Source of the DNA: Nitrososphaerota archaeon
GTDB lineage: Archaea; Thermoproteota; Nitrososphaeria; Nitrososphaerales; Nitrosopumilaceae
DNA: 48,493 nucleotides
Direction: 5' to 3'
Assembly: GCA_018668425.1 (NCBI GenBank)
Contig: JABJDB010000112.1
Span: 1 to 48,493 of the forward strand
Both the position numbers and the translations under genes were made by a program. The notes under the pieces are model-generated. The model was given only the letters and a program-made list of their open reading frames with translations. It was not told the DNA's origin and did not search any database. Of the stretch, positions 25,975 through 48,398 are shown one piece after another (the stretch's first letter is position 1; every line of letters starts with the position of its first letter).

Positions 25975-27285
25975 TTACTTCTTTTTGAACAGTATTTCAT
26001 CTTTTTCCTGCAAATCTTCTGTGAACGTATCCATATCTAACATGAATTCCTCTTCATCAGAATACGCAGATTCTGCATGCTCGCTAATATCTAATCCAAT
26101 ATCTTCTACTTCTGGAGAAACTCTAATTCCAATAAGATGTTTGAGTATTTGTAAAATTATCCAAGTACCACCAAATCCCATTACAGCTGCAACACCAACA
26201 CCTACTGCTTGAATCCATAGTTGATCAGGATTACCAAACAGTAAACCATCAACACCACCAGGATTGATTGCAGTACTTGCAAATATTCCAATTGCTAATG
26301 CACCAACAATTCCTGCAACGCCGTGTACAGAACTTACATCAAGTGCATCATCAATCTTTAATTTTTCTTTGAACAGTACTACTCCAGAGTATGAGATTAC
26401 ACCAATTGCAATACCAATTACAAATGCATGTTCTACACTAACAAATCCTGATGCCGGTGTAATACCTGCAAGACCTGCAATTGCACCGTTAATTGTTGCA
26501 ACAACAGAAGGTTTTCCAGTTCTAATCCATGAAAGACCAGCCCAAATTAAAGCAGAAATTGATGAAGCCATGTGAGTTACAATTACAGTATTTCCTGCAA
26601 CTCCACCAGATGCAGACAATGCACTTCCGGCATTAAATCCAAACCATCCTAACCACAATAATGAAGAGCCGAGTACGGCTAGTGGAATACTATGTGGAAT
26701 CATTATGGCAGGACCATAGTTTCTTCTTTTACCTAATACTAGTGCGGCAGCAAGAGCTGCCATTCCTACACTTGTGTGAATTACAATACCACCAGCAAAG
26801 TCAACAACACCTAATTGTGCTAACCAACCACCACCCCAGACCCAGTGGACTAGAGGGTAATAGATTAGCATTGACCATGCTGCAATGAAAATAATAAATG
26901 AACTAAATTTCATTCGTTCAGCTATTGTTCCTGTAAGTAATAGAGGAGTAATTGCTGCAAACATCAATTGGAATTTTACAAATAACATACCAGGAATTGT
27001 TGGTGCATATTGTTCCAATGGAGCATCAGCAGGAATTCCTTTGAGAAATACCCATTCAGTATCTCCAATTAATCCCAAAGTAGATTCTCCAAATGATAAA
27101 CTAAATCCGAAAATAAACCACATAACACTAAGCATTGCTAAACCAAAGAAGATTTGCATGAAAATGGAAGCTGCATTTTTCTTTCTTAATAATCCAGATT
27201 CAAAGAGGCCTAATGCGGGAATCATCAACAATACGAGACTTCCAGCTACGAGCATCCATGCTGTATCTCCAGAATCAAGTACCAT
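25975..27285 (-). CDS. amt: Ammonium transporter
   Basis: DSGDTAW, FQLMFA, AER, DFAGG, twin His (VIHT, SVHG), WFGFN and DDAL motifs. Confidence 0.97.
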   Translation of the reverse strand: MVLDSGDTAWMLVAGSLVLLMIPALGLFESGLLRKKNAASIFMQIFFGLAMLSVMWFIFGFSLSFGESTLGLIGDTEWVFLKGIPADAPLEQYAPTIPGMLFVKFQLMFAAITPLLLTGTIAERMKFSSFIIFIAAWSMLIYYPLVHWVWGGGWLAQLGVVDFAGGIVIHTSVGMAALAAALVLGKRRNYGPAIMIPHSIPLAVLGSSLLWLGWFGFNAGSALSASGGVAGNTVIVTHMASSISALIWAGLSWIRTGKPSVVATINGAIAGLAGITPASGFVSVEHAFVIGIAIGVISYSGVVLFKEKLKIDDALDVSSVHGVAGIVGALAIGIFASTAINPGGVDGLLFGNPDQLWIQAVGVGVAAVMGFGGTWIILQILKHLIGIRVSPEVEDIGLDISEHAESAYSDEEEFMLDMDTFTEDLQEKDEILFKKK

Positions 27286-27326
27286 TAATTGGAAAAATCA
27301 ATTTTAAATTAATAACACTAACTATT

Positions 27327-27359
27327 TTTGATTATCAAATGATTATCATTTAGTCATCA
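27327..27359. promoter_or_regulatory. Phased palindrome array in the divergent amt/PII promoter
   Basis: TGATTATCA at 27329 and 27340, degenerate TAGTCATCA at 27351; 11-bp period. Confidence 0.5.
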
Positions 27360-27401
27360 AAATAAGAAATTATATTTGTGTAAAAAATTTATGGATATTA
27401 A

Positions 27402-27743
27402 ATGCTAAAAATCGAAATTATCCTTGGTGAAAATGACGTAATGGCAATTAGTGAAGGATTAAAAAAAATTGGTATTGGAGGCCTTACAGTTTCCAAAGTT
27501 AGAGGAAGAGGAAAAAGACCAGGACCAGAAATTCACGCATCTAAAGGAAGTGAGATTTTTACACCTCAGTTTAATGAGAAATACAAAATGGAAGCAATCA
27601 TTCCAGAATCAAAAGAAGATGAAGTAGTTAACATTATCAAATCAAATGGAAGAATAGGAAAAATTTTCGTATCTCAAATTTTACGAGCAGTAGATATCGC
27701 AACAAGTGAAGAAGGCGATGAAACAATTTGGAAAAATAAGTAA
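27402..27743 (+). CDS. P-II family nitrogen regulator (non-canonical)
   Basis: KIEII, GLTVSKVRGRG and GKIFVS; divergent from amt. Confidence 0.88.
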   Translation: MLKIEIILGENDVMAISEGLKKIGIGGLTVSKVRGRGKRPGPEIHASKGSEIFTPQFNEKYKMEAIIPESKEDEVVNIIKSNGRIGKIFVSQILRAVDIATSEEGDETIWKNK

Positions 27744-27754
27744 AAAGAAAGATC

Positions 27755-27886
27755 ATGGATTTTTTACGAAAAAGCAAATTATTTCAAAGACAAAAAATGC
27801 AACCAATAAAAGGTAAAGATTACCTCAAAGTTGTTGCAATTGTTGGAATTATTGTTGTACCAGTAGTTGTTGGTTTAGTTATATGA
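27755..27886 (+). CDS. 43-aa single-TM micro-protein
   Basis: Manual translation: MDFLRKSKLFQRQKMQPIKGKDYLKVVAIVGIIVVPVVVGLVI. Confidence 0.55.
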   Translation: MDFLRKSKLFQRQKMQPIKGKDYLKVVAIVGIIVVPVVVGLVI

Positions 27887-27975
27887 AAATATCTAGGATT
27901 TTGATGATGAAATTAGTATTTGCAGCAGTAGGTATGACTTTGATAGGATTGTATTTGTTTGGTCCTTACATTTAG
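27883..27975 (+). CDS. 30-aa single-TM micro-protein
   Basis: Manual translation: MKISRILMMKLVFAAVGMTLIGLYLFGPYI; ATGA overlap with the preceding ORF. Confidence 0.5.
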   Translation: MKISRILMMKLVFAAVGMTLIGLYLFGPYI

Positions 27976-27978
27976 AAA

Positions 27979-28560
27979 TTAATAATTATTAAAATTATTT
28001 TCATAAACTACTGTAGGATTCTTTAATTGTTTTTCTAAAGTTGGAAGAGATTTCATAATACAATAATTAACAAAATCACTAAATGATTTTATTCTATAAT
28101 CATTTCGAAGTGATTCTTTGTTTTCTTCATAAGTTAATTGTAATTTTTGCAAAGTAAATTTTTGTAATGGAACAAATCTACTACGTTTAGGTAATTGTGT
28201 CACTTCTAATTTTTCTTCAGAAGAAATTCCCAAGTCTTGTTGTCCACCAAGTGTATTCATATCTACAACTTCCTCCATTTCAGAAACAAAGATTTTTCCA
28301 CCATGATTTGCAGACAATCCAGAATTTTTAGAAATCATTTCAACTACTTTTCTTGCATCTTTGTTTGAAACTACCATTTCGAGTTTTGCTAAAGGAACTG
28401 ATTTGATTCCAGTAGAACCAATACGAGAACCTTTTGATTCATCGTAAATATTACTATCCTCTAAATTTCGTTTATCAATAATGTATGTTCCAACCGCACT
28501 AAGATTAGTTTTGATTACAGTGAAATTTCTTCTCTTAATTACAGCCTCTATCTTTTTCAC
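27979..28560 (-). CDS. P-II-like domain with a C-terminal extension (ribbon-helix-helix-like)
   Basis: MKKIEAVIK...KLEMVV...GGKIFVS, then about 80 extra residues including IKSFSDFVNYCI. Confidence 0.8.
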   Translation of the reverse strand: MKKIEAVIKRRNFTVIKTNLSAVGTYIIDKRNLEDSNIYDESKGSRIGSTGIKSVPLAKLEMVVSNKDARKVVEMISKNSGLSANHGGKIFVSEMEEVVDMNTLGGQQDLGISSEEKLEVTQLPKRSRFVPLQKFTLQKLQLTYEENKESLRNDYRIKSFSDFVNYCIMKSLPTLEKQLKNPTVVYENNFNNY

Positions 28561-29879: not shown

Positions 29880-31181
29880 TTGTCTGAACTAAAGCGACAC
29901 ATGAGTCTTTTTCATCTTACGATGTACGGTGTAGGATTGATTTTAGGCGCAGGAATCTATGTCTTAATTGGAGAAGCTGCAGGATTTGCTGGAAATTCAA
30001 TGTGGATTTCTTTTTTGTTGGGTTCAATAGTTGCAATTTTTGCAGGATTAAGTTATGCAGAATTAACTGCCTTGTATCCAAAAGCAGCAGCTGAATACAC
30101 ATTTGTAAAAAATGCTTTTAAAAATAATTTTTTTGGGTTCATTATTGGATGGTTAACTGCAATTACATCAATGATTGTTGCAGCAACTGTATCTTTGGGA
30201 TTTGGGGGTTACTTTACTCAATTTATAGAATTACCAATTACTTTTGTAGCAATTTTATTAATTGGAATTTTATCAATAGTAAATTTTATTGGAATTAAAG
30301 AATCAACTTGGGCAAATACAATTTTTGCATTAATTACAGCAGCTGGATTAATTTTAATTATAATTTTAGGATTAACTACAGAACCATCTAAACCAATTGA
30401 TTATTTTGAGATGCCAAATGGATCTACAGGAATTATTCTAGCGTTTGTATTGATTTTCTTTGCATTTATTGGATTTGAAGATATGGCAAATGTTGCTGAA
30501 GAAGTAAAAAGACCTCACAAAACAATTCCAAGAGCTATAATTTTGTCTGTAGTAATTACTGGAGTAATCTATATTCTAGTATCATTATCAGTTGTTCGAG
30601 TTTTAAATTGGGAAGAATTGAGTTTGTCTTCAGCACCACTTGCTGATGTAGCTAAGAATGTTTTAGGAACAAATGGAAGTATTACACTATCACTAATTGC
30701 ATTATTTGCTACGGCAAGTACTGTTTTGATTACATTAGTTGCAGGTGCACGAATTTTGTATGGAATGGCAAAAAGTAACTCATTGCCATTATTTTTGAGT
30801 AAGATTCACTCAAAGACTAAAACACCATGGATAGCTGTAATTGGAATTTTAATTGCCTCAGTAGGGTTTGCTTTTGTTGGAGACATAGTAGTTGTTGCAA
30901 ACATTACAGTTTTTGCAGTAGTCATAACATTTGCAGTGATTAATTTGGCAGTTATTGTACTTCGTTATACTGAACCAGAATTAGAAAGACCTTTCAGAGT
31001 TCCAGTTAACATTAGAAAATTTCCAATTTTACCATTATTTGGATTTGCAACTACCGTATACATGGCATTACAGTTTGAAATTGAAGTGGTTCTAGTAGGT
31101 TTTGCAATAATTGGTATTGGTGCAATATTTTATCTTATTTTGAAAAAAAGAAATCAAATTACAAATTCTGATCTTTCTTAG
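29880..31181 (+). CDS. APC-family amino acid permease
   Basis: GLILGAGIY, YAEL, FAFIGFE, AEEVKRP and RPFRVP; about 12 TMs. Confidence 0.92.
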   Translation: MSELKRHMSLFHLTMYGVGLILGAGIYVLIGEAAGFAGNSMWISFLLGSIVAIFAGLSYAELTALYPKAAAEYTFVKNAFKNNFFGFIIGWLTAITSMIVAATVSLGFGGYFTQFIELPITFVAILLIGILSIVNFIGIKESTWANTIFALITAAGLILIIILGLTTEPSKPIDYFEMPNGSTGIILAFVLIFFAFIGFEDMANVAEEVKRPHKTIPRAIILSVVITGVIYILVSLSVVRVLNWEELSLSSAPLADVAKNVLGTNGSITLSLIALFATASTVLITLVAGARILYGMAKSNSLPLFLSKIHSKTKTPWIAVIGILIASVGFAFVGDIVVVANITVFAVVITFAVINLAVIVLRYTEPELERPFRVPVNIRKFPILPLFGFATTVYMALQFEIEVVLVGFAIIGIGAIFYLILKKRNQITNSDLS

Positions 31182-31821
31182 ATTTTATAATGGCAATTAA
31201 TGCAATTGTTATTCCAATAATACCTACTCCAATTCCAACATAACCAACATCTATTGGTTGATTAGTTTTGTTTTGATTTACAGAGTCTTTTAGCTCACTT
31301 ACATCTTCAATTAATGCAGTATGTCCATCAATCATTTGTTGAACTGTGATATCTGATGGTTCAGGAAATTCAATGTAAGAGCGTTCTGCAACTTTTGGTG
31401 GATGCATTGATAAACTAATTGGTGTATCGTTAATTGTTCCCAACATATTTGCTTGATAGAATCCAGAAACTGTTGGATTAACAAAAGCATAGTATTTTCC
31501 AGGAATATCATGATCTGGTACAAGTGGAAGTGTTATGCTTTCATCCTTGTAAATTAACTGCATTTTTACAGTTTTTTTTAATCCTTCAATTCCATTTTGA
31601 AATTCTTGAGATTCTGCACATTTGATTGGTTCTGAAATTTTAGGACATGGAATTAATGGACTAACATAGAATTCAATTCCATTAGTCTCTCCAGAAACAA
31701 CTGGTTCATTCATCCACCCAATCTCTACTCTATATTCTCCAACTGCGTCAACTGTATGACCATATGCAATACTAACTGAACCTGGAATAATTAACAACAA
31801 CAAAAACATTACAAGTTTCAT
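31159..31821 (-). CDS. Exported membrane-anchored protein (mature N-terminal His)
   Basis: Signal peptide ending AYG|H, GWxNEP motif, C-terminal TM and basic tail. Confidence 0.6.
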   Translation of the reverse strand: MKLVMFLLLLIIPGSVSIAYGHTVDAVGEYRVEIGWMNEPVVSGETNGIEFYVSPLIPCPKISEPIKCAESQEFQNGIEGLKKTVKMQLIYKDESITLPLVPDHDIPGKYYAFVNPTVSGFYQANMLGTINDTPISLSMHPPKVAERSYIEFPEPSDITVQQMIDGHTALIEDVSELKDSVNQNKTNQPIDVGYVGIGVGIIGITIALIAIIKSKKDQNL

Positions 31822-31894: not shown

Positions 31895-33340
31895 TTATGC
31901 ATCTGCATACATTGAAACTTCCCAGGTTGTAGGAGTTTGAGCAAATGCAGTATATTCATTATATTTTAATTCTGAATATTTTTCAATGAAATCTTTTGTG
32001 AAAACATCTTCTAAGAATTTTGAATCGCTAGACAAAGAATCCAATGCACCTTTTAGTGATACTGGTAGTGAGCCGATTTTGTATTCACGTTTCTTTTCTG
32101 TAGAAAGTTTGTATACATTCTCTTCAATAGGATCTCCTGGCTCAATTTTGTTTTTGATTCCATCTAATCCTGCTAGTAACAATGCTGCTTCTAAAAGATA
32201 GATATTTGCAGTAGGATCAGGTACACGATATTCCATTCTTTTACTTTTTTCTTGATTTCGATTATACATTGGAACTCTCACTGCAGCAGATCTGTTTCCT
32301 AATCCCCAACAAACATTGACTGGTGCTTCAAATCCAGGAACAAGACGTTTGTAAGAATTTGTAGTTGGATTGGATATTGCACATAATGCAGATGCGTGAC
32401 TCAAAATTCCACCAATATAGTATCTTCCAGTTTGACTTAACTGAGCTAGATTATCATTTTCATCATACATTGCATTTGAATTTCCATTCCACAAACTTTG
32501 ATGAGTATGCATAGCTGATGCATTATCTCCAAAAATTGGTTTTGGCATAAAAGTTGCTACTTTATTTTTTCGTTTAGCTTTTACTTTAACTAAATTTTTT
32601 ACAGCGATTATGTTATCTGCCATTACAATCATTTCATCATAAACTAAATTAATTTCACATTGACCAGAAGTTGCTACTTCATGATGTTCAGCTTCAATCT
32701 TTATTCCAAAATAATTATACAAATCATCACAAATATCTTTTCTAAATCCATCAAGTGTATCTTTAGGCTGTGATGGATAATATCCTTCTTTGATATCAAT
32801 TGCAGTGCTTACGTTTCCTTTAGACCATGGAGATTCTTTTGATTCAATAGAATAACCTGAGCCTGCACCAGAATGTGTTGCAGCATATGGTGATGGATAA
32901 ACATTGATTGCATCAAAAACAAAGAATTCTATTTCGGGTCCCCAATTAGTATGAGAAAATCCAAAATATTTTAATTTCTCTGATGCTTTGTGTGCAATTC
33001 CTCTAGAGTCTCGATTATATCGTGATTCTTTATTTGTACTTCCATCATACAGATCACAAAAAATTCTTGCATTCTTTCTATTACCTGGATCATAATCAGG
33101 TGGAAGAATTTTAAATGAATTAGGATCAGGCATTAAAATCATATCAGAGTTATTTACAGATTTAAATCCAACAATCGAACTTGCATCCAATTTTTCAAGG
33201 CCATTTACAAAACTATCTTTATCAATTGCATAACTTGGCATTCCAACATTATGTAGTTCTCCAAAAATATCTACAAACCAAAAGTCAATGAAAGAGATAT
33301 TTTCATCTTGAATTGTTTGTAGTACTTGATCTGCGTTCAA
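31895..33340 (-). CDS. glnA: Glutamine synthetase type I, second paralog
   Basis: DASS, GPEIEF, HHEVA, MPKP, SYKRLVPGFEAP, NRS and EYRVPD motifs. Confidence 0.9.
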   Translation of the reverse strand: MNADQVLQTIQDENISFIDFWFVDIFGELHNVGMPSYAIDKDSFVNGLEKLDASSIVGFKSVNNSDMILMPDPNSFKILPPDYDPGNRKNARIFCDLYDGSTNKESRYNRDSRGIAHKASEKLKYFGFSHTNWGPEIEFFVFDAINVYPSPYAATHSGAGSGYSIESKESPWSKGNVSTAIDIKEGYYPSQPKDTLDGFRKDICDDLYNYFGIKIEAEHHEVATSGQCEINLVYDEMIVMADNIIAVKNLVKVKAKRKNKVATFMPKPIFGDNASAMHTHQSLWNGNSNAMYDENDNLAQLSQTGRYYIGGILSHASALCAISNPTTNSYKRLVPGFEAPVNVCWGLGNRSAAVRVPMYNRNQEKSKRMEYRVPDPTANIYLLEAALLLAGLDGIKNKIEPGDPIEENVYKLSTEKKREYKIGSLPVSLKGALDSLSSDSKFLEDVFTKDFIEKYSELKYNEYTAFAQTPTTWEVSMYADA

Positions 33341-33430
33341 TTATTGTTTTTAGAGAATTAGTTTACTAATGTTATTTAGTAAGATAGAATTGTCAAGATG
33401 GTCAGGTAAATTCTAAGATTTTGACTAGTT

Positions 33431-34771
33431 TTAATGAGATGACGTTATCGTTTTCATCTCATCATCAAAGAAGAATTTTTCTGAAAATGCAGGAGTCAAA
33501 TCATCTAACCAAATTGCATTTTCATCATATTTTGCAAAAAATGGAACATCCACCCAATCAGGATTTCTGCCTTGCAAGAATCTTAAAACGATCATTTTTT
33601 GATCATTAATTGTTGTAGTTCCAATCACGTGTACTTTACCTGGGGTTGCTGACATACTAGGACCACGAACAGTTCTTGCTAATCCACTTACTGAGGAATA
33701 TGCCTTTTTGAAAATTTCTTGAGCTTTAATCAAAGAGATTCCAAAATAGTGCTGTGCTCCCGTATCTCTTACTACAAACATGTAATATGGAATACAACCC
33801 AATTGAACCTGTTTTGTCCACATTTTTGCCCACATTTCTGAATCATCATTAATGTGTGCCAATATTGGGGATTGAGTTCTAATTTGTGCTCCAGTCGCTC
33901 TTACTTTTTTGATTGCATCTTTTACAGCATCAGTTGATAATTCTGTTAGATGATTAAAGTGGGCCATAAATGCAAGATGAATTCCATTATCAGTAATTTT
34001 TTTGAAAACATCTAACATTTCTTGAGAATCAGAATCAGTCAAAAATTTGTATGGCCAATATGATAATGCTTTTGTTCCAATTCTGATTGTTTTAAGATTA
34101 GGAAGTTTTGCATCAATTAATGCATCAACGTATTTTGAAAACATTTTAGCTTTCATTATCATCGGATCACCGCCAGTGAATAATACATCACTAATTTCTG
34201 GATGTTCTCTTACATATTGAACAAGTTGTTGTCCTTCTTGCATTGCAAATTTCATTTCATCCATTCCAACAAATTGTGGCCATCTAAAACAAAAACTACA
34301 ATATGCATGGCATGTTTGACTTTGACTTGGGAAAAACAGACATGTTTCTTTGTATTTGTGTTGCATACCATACAATTTGGTTCCATCATTAAGAGTTGGA
34401 ACATTTAATTCCATTTGTCCAGCTGGATGTGGATTCAATTGTAATCTAATTTCATTTGCAATATTTGCAATTTCTTTTTTATCAGCATTATTTTTTAAAG
34501 CAGTTTCCATTTTTTTGTAATGTTCTTGACTAAGCATTCCTTTTTGTGGAAAAGTTAAAACAAACATTGAATCGTTTGGAATGTTGTTCCAATCAATTAA
34601 TTGTTCAACAACATAGTTGTTAGTTTTAAAAGGTAAAACATTTCCTACAACTTCCATTTCAAATTGAGTTTCTTCAGAAAGTCTTTGAATTTGTGGTAGT
34701 TCTCTAAAATTTGCTAAAGTAATTGATTTTAAAGATGGAGAATCATCCCAAACTGATTCTTGATAGGTCAT
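33431..34771 (-). CDS. KamA-family radical SAM/PLP 2,3-aminomutase (substrate probably not lysine)
   Basis: HKY, CHAYCSFCFR (CxxxCxxC), TGGDP, RIGTK, HFNH, PYY and PGK (PLP Lys). Confidence 0.85.
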   Translation of the reverse strand: MTYQESVWDDSPSLKSITLANFRELPQIQRLSEETQFEMEVVGNVLPFKTNNYVVEQLIDWNNIPNDSMFVLTFPQKGMLSQEHYKKMETALKNNADKKEIANIANEIRLQLNPHPAGQMELNVPTLNDGTKLYGMQHKYKETCLFFPSQSQTCHAYCSFCFRWPQFVGMDEMKFAMQEGQQLVQYVREHPEISDVLFTGGDPMIMKAKMFSKYVDALIDAKLPNLKTIRIGTKALSYWPYKFLTDSDSQEMLDVFKKITDNGIHLAFMAHFNHLTELSTDAVKDAIKKVRATGAQIRTQSPILAHINDDSEMWAKMWTKQVQLGCIPYYMFVVRDTGAQHYFGISLIKAQEIFKKAYSSVSGLARTVRGPSMSATPGKVHVIGTTTINDQKMIVLRFLQGRNPDWVDVPFFAKYDENAIWLDDLTPAFSEKFFFDDEMKTITSSH

Positions 34772-34922
34772 TTAGTAAATAGTCCATTTACTATTGTTAA
34801 AGGTTGCAAGTATTTTACGCACAAAATTTCATAATGAATTGATAAAAATTTCAATAAATAATGACAATATGCCTTAACGTTTGTATTCAAGAAGATGAAT
34901 TTGAGTAGAATGGTGATTATTA

Positions 34923-36665
34923 GTGGCTGAAGGAGACTTGACACAAATTCCAGTTGGACAGTTTGAAACAGTTTCACAGCTTTTAGCATCAAATGAATCA
35001 ATTCAAATTGCATTTTCTATAATGATTTTAGGAATTATTGGAATAGCAATTGGTTATAGGAAATTTTCATTTTGGGTAGGTTCACAGAAATTCTATTATC
35101 AAAAACCACATTTAGCAAGATTTGCACGCAGAGCAATTCTACCAGTTTTAGGAATTGTGTTAATTACATTAATCAATGTTCACATACAAAATGGTATTTT
35201 GTTAGGTGAGGACTTGACTATAGAGGGGGATGAAGATATTTCACCTCAAGAAATATTTGCAAAGATTCTCAACACATTCAATATTTTGGTAATCGGTTAT
35301 ACAATTTCGCATCTTATCCCAATTGGTCTTAACAAACGTGAAAAAACAGAATTAGAAAAACAGGATTTTGATGCCTGGTTTGAAATGAGAGGATATGTTG
35401 ATGATAATGATGAATTGTTCCATAAATTGTACAAGTGGGTTCCACCAAAAGTCATTCCAGAAGATATTCCAGAGGAGGAATTCAAAGAGATGTTAAAAAC
35501 AGAAGAAGGCATGTTAGATTTGGAACGATTCCGAACATCAAAAGGAAATGCAATTGGCGGATATGAAAAATTAGTTGATAAACCATTTGAAGAATGGAAA
35601 AAATCTGAGCGTTTGAAATATGAAAAATATTATCAAAATTGTATTACTGGTAACAATCAATCTGGAAGAAAGTTAAAACCAGGTGCAAAACCTGATGAAA
35701 TATTTCCTATTGATGTATGGAGAGAAGAAAAAAGAACAAATGGCTTTGAGCCACTAATTCCAAGTTCTCGTCCTCCAGGATATGCAAAAAAGAAAAGAGA
35801 GGGAATTCCAAAATCTGCAAGACAGGTTCTTCCAGTTGGAATTTTTGTTGCAACAATTTTAGGAGTTGTTGCTTGGTGGGGTGTTGATCTGATTGTACTT
35901 GCTACAGCTACAGGTGGAATGGCAATTGGTATAGGATTAGCATTGCAAGAGACAATGCAGAATTATTTTGCATATATTCTCATAAGAAAAGATAAGATAT
36001 TTGTCGAAGGTGAGCGTGTAAAACTAGATACAGGATATAATGGCTATGTACACAAAATTACGCCTAGAGTTACCTATATTCGAGATGCATTAAATGAATC
36101 AGTTGCAATAATTCCAACAAGACAATTAGTTAATGCACAGGTGATTAATTATACACAGGGAATAAAGATGGTACCTGCAATTGTAGATGTGGGAGTTTCT
36201 TATCTTAATGATCCTAAACAAGTTTCAGCTATTCTTGTAAAAGTTGGGAAACGTGCAATGAATGAAGTGGTTGATGGTAGAGGTAGACATCTCATTACAC
36301 AAATTCGATGTCCATACTTGAAACATAATCAACCAAGTTGTGGTTGTGATAAAGATATTCATGTTGATATCAATCAGCCAGTTGTGAGATTTAACCAATT
36401 CAATGATTCTGCATTAGATTTTTCATTATGGGTTTATGTTAGAGATTATGGTGCACAATTCAAAACTAAAACAGACATGAGGATAATCATGTATGAAGAG
36501 TTCAAGAAATATGATATTAGAATTCCATGGCCAATTAGAACAGTATACCAAGGAGATGAAAAACGTGAACAAGAAGAGATCGATAAACTGGAGGATCAGA
36601 GAAATACAGTTATTGATAAATACGGTATAGGGGATCTTGGCCGCGGTAGTGGCGAGGATGAATAA
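34923..36665 (+). CDS. mscS: MscS-family mechanosensitive channel with large insertions
   Basis: IGIGLALQETMQN, GERV..G.V.KI..R, IPT..L...VIN, VGVSY, F.DSALDF and IRIPWP motifs. Confidence 0.88.
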   Translation: MAEGDLTQIPVGQFETVSQLLASNESIQIAFSIMILGIIGIAIGYRKFSFWVGSQKFYYQKPHLARFARRAILPVLGIVLITLINVHIQNGILLGEDLTIEGDEDISPQEIFAKILNTFNILVIGYTISHLIPIGLNKREKTELEKQDFDAWFEMRGYVDDNDELFHKLYKWVPPKVIPEDIPEEEFKEMLKTEEGMLDLERFRTSKGNAIGGYEKLVDKPFEEWKKSERLKYEKYYQNCITGNNQSGRKLKPGAKPDEIFPIDVWREEKRTNGFEPLIPSSRPPGYAKKKREGIPKSARQVLPVGIFVATILGVVAWWGVDLIVLATATGGMAIGIGLALQETMQNYFAYILIRKDKIFVEGERVKLDTGYNGYVHKITPRVTYIRDALNESVAIIPTRQLVNAQVINYTQGIKMVPAIVDVGVSYLNDPKQVSAILVKVGKRAMNEVVDGRGRHLITQIRCPYLKHNQPSCGCDKDIHVDINQPVVRFNQFNDSALDFSLWVYVRDYGAQFKTKTDMRIIMYEEFKKYDIRIPWPIRTVYQGDEKREQEEIDKLEDQRNTVIDKYGIGDLGRGSGEDE

Positions 36666-46882: not shown

Positions 46883-46937
46883 GACTTACCTAATCCTTAA
46901 ATGATGGATGTATTTGTGTTTGATTGAAGTACAAAAA

Positions 46938-48398
46938 TTGCCCTATAAAGTAAGTCATGGTAAAGCAGTGCAAGTAACATACTCATCAGATGAAGTTTTC
47001 TCCAGAATTAAACACGAAGGAATTCAATTCATCGATTTACAATTTACAGGTCTTACTGGTCATTTCCATCATACCACAATTTCTGCTGATACGTTTACAC
47101 CTGATCAAATGAAAGATGGATTACCAAAATTAGATGGTTCATCAATTATCGGATTTACTAGTATTCAAGATTCAGATTTACTCTTAAAACCAGATCCAAA
47201 CACATTTGCAATTATTCCTTGGTTAACTGAAAACAAAACAGCAAGATTGCTCTGTGATGTGTATTGGGGAGGGAACCGAGGAAGACTAGAAAGTGATCCT
47301 AGAGGAATTTCTCAAAAAGCTGAAGAATACATCAAAACTCAAGGATTTGATTTTAGTACATGGGGTCCAGAAGTAGAATTTTTTGTTTTTGATAAAGTTC
47401 ATTGGGATGTTCTAACACCGTACAAAGGACAATCATATTCTATTGAATCAAAAGAAGCTCCATGGAGTAATGATGGTGATGGATATCCAATGGGGTTACA
47501 AGAAGGATACTATCCAAGTACTCCAGCTGACACTTTAACTCCTTACAGAAATGAATGTGTAAATATTCTAAACAAGAATTTCGGAATTTTGTGTGATAAT
47601 CACCACCACGAAGTTGCAACTGCAGGACAATGTGAAATTGATATCAAATATGATTACATGACTAATGCTGCAGACGCTGCACAGTCATACAAGTATGTAA
47701 TTCGAAATGTTGCACAAAAGTATGGTAAAGTTGCAACAATGATGCCAAAACCAATTGCAATGGATTCAGGTTCTGGCATGCATGTTAATGTAAGTTTGTG
47801 GAAAGGAAAAGAAAATCAATTCTTTGATCCGGATGATGAAATTGAATTAAGTCAATTAGGACGATATTTTTGTGGTGGTATTATTAATCACGCAAAAGCA
47901 TTATCTGCAATTTGTAATCCAACTACAAACTCTTACCATAGATTAGTTCCAGGATATGAAGCTCCTGCATATATTGCATGGAGTTCAGGAAATCGTTCTG
48001 CAATAGTTAGAGTTCCAAATCACCTTACAGGAGAAAAATACGCTAATCTCAAAAGATTAGAGTTTAGAGCACCTGATCCATCATCAAACCCATATCTTGT
48101 ATTTGCAGCAGTAACTGCAGCAGGTCTTGATGGAGTAAAGAAGAAAATGGATCCTGGAGATGAAGTTCGTGATGATATTTTCAAGATGACAAAATCAGAT
48201 AGAGCTAAAAGAGGTATTGGTGTTTTGCCAAGAAATCTTAGTGAAGCATTAGATGAATTAGAAAGTGATAGAAAGTTCCTTAACCCAATTTACACAAATA
48301 ATGTAATTGATAAAATTATAGAATTAGAAAGAAGAGATCAACGTGAAATTGCCATTAGACCGCATCCACATGAATTTTATCTATACTTTGATGTCTAA
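46938..48398 (+). CDS. glnA: Glutamine synthetase type I (probable housekeeping copy)
   Basis: DGSS, GPEVEF, HHEVA, MPKP..DSGSGMH, PGYEAP, NRS and EFRAPD. TTG 46938 preferred over the track start at 46908. Confidence 0.93.
   Translation: MPYKVSHGKAVQVTYSSDEVFSRIKHEGIQFIDLQFTGLTGHFHHTTISADTFTPDQMKDGLPKLDGSSIIGFTSIQDSDLLLKPDPNTFAIIPWLTENKTARLLCDVYWGGNRGRLESDPRGISQKAEEYIKTQGFDFSTWGPEVEFFVFDKVHWDVLTPYKGQSYSIESKEAPWSNDGDGYPMGLQEGYYPSTPADTLTPYRNECVNILNKNFGILCDNHHHEVATAGQCEIDIKYDYMTNAADAAQSYKYVIRNVAQKYGKVATMMPKPIAMDSGSGMHVNVSLWKGKENQFFDPDDEIELSQLGRYFCGGIINHAKALSAICNPTTNSYHRLVPGYEAPAYIAWSSGNRSAIVRVPNHLTGEKYANLKRLEFRAPDPSSNPYLVFAAVTAAGLDGVKKKMDPGDEVRDDIFKMTKSDRAKRGIGVLPRNLSEALDELESDRKFLNPIYTNNVIDKIIELERRDQREIAIRPHPHEFYLYFDV

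Follow-up and report, generated by a model that had tools for sequence, protein, structure and literature searches.

We found that a 48,493-nucleotide stretch of DNA from a Nitrososphaerota archaeon of the family Nitrosopumilaceae (assembly GCA_018668425.1, contig JABJDB010000112.1; hereafter the window) carries a real, conserved module formed by a KamA-like aminomutase gene, a second copy of the glutamine synthetase (GS) gene glnA and a divergent gene for a long MscS-family channel (mscS). The product of the second glnA is called GS2 and the other GS of the window GS1. Judged by its sequence, the aminomutase is a radical S-adenosylmethionine/pyridoxal phosphate (PLP) 2,3-aminomutase of the KamA superfamily, in a clade with IdnL4-like enzymes. 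We consider it probable, at roughly 0.7, that it makes beta-glutamate, which the cells would keep as an osmolyte. The assignment of beta-glutamate chemistry to this clade in ammonia-oxidizing archaea (AOA), and its link with GS2, did not turn up in our literature searches, which missed most subscription papers; the chemistry and the solute were already known.

The cluster offers a candidate gene for beta-glutamate that can be tested and could serve as a marker of the compound. If this assignment is true, re-annotation would follow for a large clade that at present bears the label lysine 2,3-aminomutase, estimated at ~6900 matching stretches in the species-genome collection, and a glutamate aminomutase from an aerobe would be available, an enzyme that pathway designers call lacking (bioRxiv 10.1101/2025.11.21.689712).

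Fold, pocket and relatives of the aminomutase

The aminomutase displays the cluster motif CxxxCxxC, whose cysteines are invariant in our alignment, and its AlphaFold2 model reaches a predicted local distance difference test score (pLDDT) of 94. A structure search with this model retrieved the lysine 2,3-aminomutase KamA/AblA of Clostridium subterminale (PDB 2A5H) as the top match, with a Z score of 35.7 and a root mean square deviation of 3.8 over 350 residues, followed by a second match with a Z score of 13.7. Membership in the families described by the models for lysine 2,3-aminomutase (TIGR03820, 114.2 bits, cut-off 525.4), EpmB (TIGR03821, 103 bits, cut-off 369), arginine 2,3-aminomutase (TIGR04468, 100 bits, cut-off 600) and the clostridial glutamate 2,3-aminomutase EAM (TIGR04368, 90.7 bits, cut-off 650) was ruled out, since all scores are far under the cut-offs.

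The window enzyme and 2A5H, aligned at ~22% identity with an inferred register, have in common the fold, CxxxCxxC, GGD, the arginine R134 (R163 in the window protein) and the lysine K337 (K379), which we take to be the residues that hold the alpha-carboxylate and PLP, respectively. They differ at D293, which is replaced by R335, and at D330, replaced by S372 or S374; these two aspartates presumably grip the lysine side chain. In clostridial EAM, the D293 position is also occupied by a basic residue. The alignment suggests that R163 would hold the alpha-carboxylate and R335 the side-chain carboxylate of glutamate. Among three control proteins resembling lysine 2,3-aminomutase, aspartate was found at the first of these positions in all three and at the second in two. 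No variation was seen at R335, S374, R163 or K379 across 89 archaeal and 68 other rows, an alignment in which some genomes appear twice and 80 loci were found by a pattern able to include R335. When 65 cluster representatives were chosen without the motif, position 335 was arginine in 38 and aspartate in 2, with a gap in 5 others; the clade at large is therefore heterogeneous. A literature search for the pocket residue numbers gave no match, most subscription papers being outside the search.

The closest functionally annotated context for this clade came from plasmid records, of which 139 had a match and 24 a match covering at least 80% of the protein. We inspected seven close ones. The homolog in one of them (L033) is 45% identical to the window enzyme and shares R335, S374 and K379 with it. 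Its gene belongs to a Streptomyces type I polyketide synthase (PKS) cluster of the macrolactam kind and is flanked by a proline-iminopeptidase-family (VinJ-like) gene on one side and a PLP enzyme on the other, and an adenylation enzyme with 5JJQ as best PDB match adjoins this cassette. We take 5JJQ to be IdnL1 and 3WMR to be VinJ. The arrangement is that of the incednine-type cassettes, found in incednine and related 3-aminobutyrate-primed macrolactams, which comprise the glutamate 2,3-aminomutase IdnL4 and the beta-glutamate decarboxylase IdnL3 (PMC11284099; PMC9230918). IdnL4 of the incednine producer is known here by description, and the comparison was made through the L033 homolog. In those cassettes beta-glutamate is decarboxylated to a polyketide starter, whereas the partners in the window are MscS and a GS. 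The other six plasmid homologs were found in nonribosomal peptide synthetase (NRPS), type III PKS, siderophore-like and other contexts.

A quick tree of 54 rows unites the 47 clade members, L033 among them, on a long branch, with a support of 100 in the Shimodaira–Hasegawa-like approximate likelihood-ratio test (SH-aLRT). Within this group the archaeal sequences are nested in bacterial diversity, and one row with a bacterial label falls inside the archaeal set, which makes it likely that the gene was gained from bacteria. Clostridial EAM has the same proposed reaction; the window enzyme is outside that family and belongs to a distant clade. A 629-aa archaeal long-form KamA (L282), which presumably resembles the methanogen type, has a lysine at the D293 position, is only ~20% identical and lies far off in the tree. 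An aminomutase that produces beta-glutamate for use as an osmolyte has been described from methanogens (Tunckanat et al. 2022, cited in bioRxiv 10.1101/2025.11.21.689712).

The product proposed for the window enzyme is abundant in a cultured relative. Beta-glutamate was the top identified metabolite by abundance in Nitrosopumilus maritimus SCM1, at 730 mM, and it is more abundant at depth in the ocean (Heal 2021, PMC8269262). The word aminomutase is absent from the main text of that paper, and our literature search found no paper tying an aminomutase gene to beta-glutamate in AOA, most subscription papers being outside its range. Close homologs of the window genes carry the label Nitrosopumilus, and the aminomutase gene is present in 51/51 genomes of this genus that are at least 85% complete; SCM1 therefore very likely carries it.

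Conservation of the gene cluster

The tandem order of the aminomutase gene and the second glnA, separated by 90 bp, with mscS divergent, had been noted in the initial annotation and agrees with the coordinates of the open reading frames (ORFs); the spacer before mscS measures 151 bp. The same arrangement recurs elsewhere. We examined 30 same-genus loci together with 1.5 kb on either side: the divergent gene next to the aminomutase is mscS in 27, and GS2 follows the aminomutase in 19, two of the 30 loci ending before the GS2 position. Across genera, in 40 loci hand-picked to span them, 26 have the long mscS in divergent orientation and a further one has it within 6 kb, some MscS is found within ~6 kb of the aminomutase in 31, and GS2 within ~6 kb in 24. 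Metagenome GS2 loci with at least 1 kb of upstream sequence (n = 48) include the aminomutase in 41 cases and mscS as well in 37. All three genes are present in named records of Nitrosopumilus, Nitrosarchaeum sp. LAS73 and Cenarchaeum sp., and a Nitrosopelagicus record has the aminomutase and mscS, with no GS2 within 6 kb. This three-gene linkage exceeds chance.

The aminomutase gene was detected in 175 of 250 family genomes, after one weak match was dropped, and in a class-wide draw in 111/139 family genomes, with one distant match in the other 61 genomes. Osmolyte synthesis genes of another kind, ectABCD, are known from N. maritimus of the same genus, where ectoine genes are patchy and mscS is, according to the initial annotation, co-encoded with the ect genes; by comparison, the aminomutase is in every one of the same-genus genomes mentioned above. 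In the whole assembly, which is 87% complete, no EctC was found over the cut-off, and the only MscS is the long channel of the window. As the initial annotation had pointed out for the window, the partners of lysine 2,3-aminomutase and EpmB are also missing: we found no AblB, and no EpmA over the cut-off, even assembly-wide. Their absence suggests that beta-lysine is not used and was counted for the beta-glutamate reading.

The long MscS has two N-terminal hydrophobic segments, a large soluble insert and the MscS core at residues 344-534; its MscS beta and C-terminal domains (PF00924, 29.9 bits, cut-off 20.2; PF21082, 29.6 bits, cut-off 21) follow a hydrophobic segment identified by hydropathy. 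The soluble insert before the core measures ~170 aa, and a Cys-rich insert was observed near residues 460-475. We believe that the channel may well vent solutes on down-shock. The proposed mechanism would start with a 5'-deoxyadenosyl-initiated 1,2-amino shift on PLP-bound glutamate, giving beta-glutamate, which would build up because it is unused in protein synthesis, be retained as an osmolyte and be released with other solutes through MscS on down-shock. The step from glutamate to beta-glutamate and its osmotic role, as put forward in the initial annotation, are well supported, if indirectly, by the pocket residues, the kinship with the incednine-type cassette, the 730 mM beta-glutamate and the repeated association with MscS and Na+/H+ antiporters.

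A restriction of the cluster to marine lineages is contradicted by a Nitrosarchaeum record (L088) in which it is intact. We take Nitrosarchaeum to be a low-salinity genus, and its presence there weakens a purely marine reading. Fourteen seawater DNA runs contain 74-84% of the words of the window.

The second glutamine synthetase and alternative explanations

GS2 scores 522 bits against the type I glutamine synthetase model TIGR00653 (cut-off 429). Its metal, ATP and ammonium-site residues are kept, including the conserved D52, S55, Y187, E221, N273 and E338, which correspond to D50, S53, Y179, E212, N264 and E327 of the Salmonella enzyme, residues that we assign to the ammonium site and the flaps. 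With an intact ammonium site, GS2 should use ammonium and not an organic amine, and it would be an intact ATP- and ammonium-dependent ligase. A role as gamma-glutamyl-amine ligase was ruled out by this site and by the scores (NF045547, 240 bits, cut-off 650; TIGR03105, 240 bits, cut-off 470). The substrate loop is distinctive: it reads GDNASAMH in place of the usual GDNGSGMH, with A274 in 52 and A276 in 53 of 53 rows. These changes equal G265A and G267A in Salmonella numbering, so the glutamate-pocket glycines of NGSGMH are not kept. A metagenome scan for GDNASAMH retrieved 118 loci, of which 102 are GS, each sharing 58% or more identity with GS2; the other 16 are chance matches to unrelated sequences. 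GS1 has deviations of its own in the same loop, and the motif alone is therefore no proof of specificity for beta-glutamate.

The distribution of GS2 in the 250 family genomes is nested in that of the aminomutase. With a threshold set post hoc in the score gap between GS1 and GS2 matches, GS2 was called in 123 genomes; 122 have both genes, 53 the aminomutase only and 74 neither, and in the sole GS2-only genome a 2.2-kb contig begins with GS2. In three mixed genera the presence of GS2 and of the aminomutase match exactly (14/42, 12/25 and 3/6), and in genus g43 the aminomutase is alone in 14/18 genomes. Both coordinates were listed for 112 genomes, where the two genes are linked in 89, more than 100 kb apart on one contig in 11 and on different contigs in 12. 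This nesting indicates that GS2 depends on the aminomutase, which itself does not depend on GS2. GS2 is also decaying in some genomes with an intact aminomutase: three suspect copies of the same genus were inspected (L286, L287 and L288), and all are broken, by a stop, a truncation or a split into two ORFs.

The initial annotation had GS2 convert beta-glutamate to beta-glutamine. This step is plausible in the light of the nesting and of the loop, and we propose it tentatively, at somewhat less than even odds. The absence or breakage of GS2 in 53/175 aminomutase genomes speaks against it, since a GS2 that is dispensable makes beta-glutamine synthesis less certain. The co-occurrence counts carry less weight than their size suggests, as related genomes are not independent and neighbouring genes may disappear jointly without a functional cause; loss in blocks accounts for part of the pattern. 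The beta-glutamine-making GS of Methanohalophilus portucalensis is the cell's ordinary GS, with relaxed specificity. Compared by description with that enzyme, which converts beta-glutamate to beta-glutamine at high salt (PMC1224877), GS2 is a separate paralog that has its own loop and travels with the aminomutase.

A competing explanation, which we also place a little under one chance in two, is that the aminomutase makes beta-glutamate while GS2 is a salt- or nitrogen-regulated second GS acting on alpha-glutamate, so that no beta-glutamine is formed. The GlnA score and the retention of all checked catalytic residues are consistent with this, as is a conserved element of its own upstream of GS2; beta-glutamine was not found in the passages and readable supplements of PMC8269262, and Halobacillus osmoadaptation involves glutamine and a second glnA (PMC2412884). 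On the other hand, a GS match is present in 248/250 family genomes whether or not GS2 is (GS1), GS2 is nested in aminomutase genomes even when the two are unlinked, and its altered loop is both nearly invariant and, in the metagenome scan, confined among GS to its own relatives.

GS2 would be an optional third part of the module: its activity may not be limited to alpha-glutamate, and it may convert beta-glutamate to the neutral amide beta-glutamine. We speculate that small-genome lineages, such as genus g43, drop GS2 since beta-glutamine costs ammonium, which is also the cells' energy source. In its fullest form, the proposal is a two-step osmolyte switch in most Nitrosopumilaceae, in which an aminomutase outside the EAM clade would supply anionic beta-glutamate, a dedicated NASAMH-type GS2 with its own promoter would convert it to neutral beta-glutamine when ammonium allows, and nitrogen-short lineages would drop the second step; taken as a whole, we regard this as rather unlikely. 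If GS2 prefers beta-glutamate, the specificity would be new; if the switch is true, GS2 would also be without precedent as a dedicated beta-glutamine synthetase, and some of the most abundant nitrifiers of the ocean would contain a hidden sink for ammonium. A nitrogen-storage role of the module is speculation.

We consider it improbable that the genes are neighbours by inheritance only, with mscS functionally unrelated to the aminomutase. Gene order is indeed widely conserved around the locus, with prs after mscS in most loci; 8 of the 40 cross-genus loci have no MscS within ~6 kb (one further locus ends at the aminomutase), and bacterial homologs lack an MscS neighbour. Against this, 4/40 loci, from two genera, carry on the downstream side of the aminomutase a different MscS of 280 aa, which shares only a 72-residue match with the long one and is accompanied by a Na+/H+ antiporter; of the 8 complete loci without MscS, 3 have Na+/H+ antiporter genes close to the aminomutase.

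Several observations count against the assignment of beta-glutamate synthesis and its osmotic role. The glutamate model gives the lowest score among six KamA models. The pocket mapping depends on the register of a distant alignment, the invariance of R335 is partly built into the search pattern for the 80 loci, 27 of the 65 representatives lack R335 (5 of them as gaps), and a conserved aspartate, D336, is one residue from the D293 position. IdnL4 itself has knockout support without in vitro activity (PMC11284099). The clade is mixed, with homologs in an NRPS cluster, in a siderophore-like cluster with lysine-related genes and elsewhere, and the bacterial members include non-halophiles. No GS or long-MscS neighbour was found in 61 non-AOA loci (bacteria and two Thermoplasmatota, many of them short and processed with a crude ORF caller), no named SCM1 protein is among the clade members listed, and the low-salinity occurrence described above belongs here too. 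By name, as we judge it, 29 of these 61 loci come from marine or halophilic groups (Marinobacter, Halomonas, Guyparkeria and others), a count without background control.

Another substrate, such as glutamine, 2-aminoadipate or alanine, with GS2 supplying or modifying it and the beta-glutamate of N. maritimus arising by a glutaconyl-CoA route, has in our view a small chance of being correct: the diversity of the clade in context and pocket would allow it, and such a route has been proposed for methanogens (PMC1224877), but the invariant archaeal pocket arginine suits a carboxylate and the beta-glutamate cassette is the nearest context with a functional annotation. Least likely is that the enzyme is a lysine 2,3-aminomutase making beta-lysine, as the database labels of its relatives say, for although its top NCBIfam and PDB matches are lysine enzymes, D336 is conserved, many bacterial homologs have Glu at residue 334 and one homolog sits among lysine-related genes, the score of 114 bits falls far short of 525, an arginine at the D293 position would repel the lysine side chain, residue 334 is Val, Thr or Ala in the archaeal proteins, and AblB and EpmA were not found.

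Gene map, putative regulatory elements and neighbouring genes

Coordinates of the module, the nearby genes and the conserved non-coding elements (window positions, unless a locus is named)
Feature	Position	Strand	Remarks
GS2 (second glnA, type I glutamine synthetase)	31895-33340	-	481 aa ORF
KamA-like aminomutase	33431-34771	-	446 aa ORF; C154/C158/C161, R163, R335, S372/S374, K379
mscS, long MscS-family channel	34923-36665	+	580 aa ORF
GS1, likely housekeeping glutamine synthetase	46908-48398	+	context, outside the module
APC amino-acid permease	29880-31181	+	nearby here, not a conserved cluster member
Conserved ~50-nt element, aminomutase-GS2 spacer	33362-33410	-	TGAC/TTAC words repeated; TTAC-N12-GTAA dyad 33363-33382
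Conserved promoter-like block	34790-34807	-	~20-35 nt before aminomutase start codon
Short MscS paralog in place of the long one	L047:8124-9053, L055:8623-9462, L059:4616-5464, L060:5309-6151		DUF432 gene in L055 and L059

The conserved ~50-nt element in the spacer between the aminomutase and GS2 is recognisable in 19/19 same-genus spacers aligned and fades in other genera. It is likely a promoter or regulator site of GS2, and its conservation suggests separate regulation of this gene. The bare TTAC-N12-GTAA motif occurs twice in the window against 0.74 expected, a number reached in 21/100 shuffles and not above chance, and its use as a shared nitrogen operator was rejected, as it is absent before amt, GS1, the two P-II genes and mscS. 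The promoter-like block before the aminomutase is recognisable in 28/30 rows (shifted in L028 and L029) and likely corresponds to the archaeal TFB-recognition element (BRE) and TATA box of a nearly leaderless transcript. An inverted repeat of 8 bp immediately ahead of the aminomutase start was dismissed, being not conserved, and matches in a sigma-70 scan were at chance level.

The separate glnA reported in the initial annotation at about 14 kb is GS1, whose start lies 13,568 bp from that of GS2; the two proteins are 44% identical. The APC permease is nearby in this window, as had been noted, and its membership in the module was rejected, since it is beside the cluster in 2/40 cross-genus and 3/19 archaeal loci. 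Contigs of three metatranscriptomes match parts of all three module genes, some without differences, which is no proof of transcription or of its level; the APC stretch is not covered by metatranscriptome contigs, and this proves nothing.

An ammonium transporter gene and two P-II genes were observed at 25975-28560, a distance of 3-6 kb from GS2, which makes this a nitrogen neighbourhood as well. After GS2, at 31159-31821, lies a gene for a 220-aa protein without Pfam or NCBIfam match, which in relatives often remains close to the aminomutase. In two genera the long mscS is followed by genes for a GNAT acetyltransferase and an amidohydrolase (L043:2807-4239 and L066:1572-3016); the GNAT protein of L066 has no NCBIfam match and is therefore not AblB. 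In two bacterial loci a class I/II aminotransferase gene is divergent from or convergent with the aminomutase gene (L102:4308-5597 and L104:4013-5314), with a relative in the archaeal locus L080, and it is possible that this is a beta-glutamate-using enzyme. A further KamA-like gene, unrelated to the first, lies inside a cell-surface sugar cluster in one same-genus genome (L281:5356-6522). Finally, the 3' kilobase of GS1 recurs at the end of another contig of the assembly (G000:C57:7969-9020), in a copy with 92% DNA identity and an unchanged protein, which probably derives from a second strain in the assembly.

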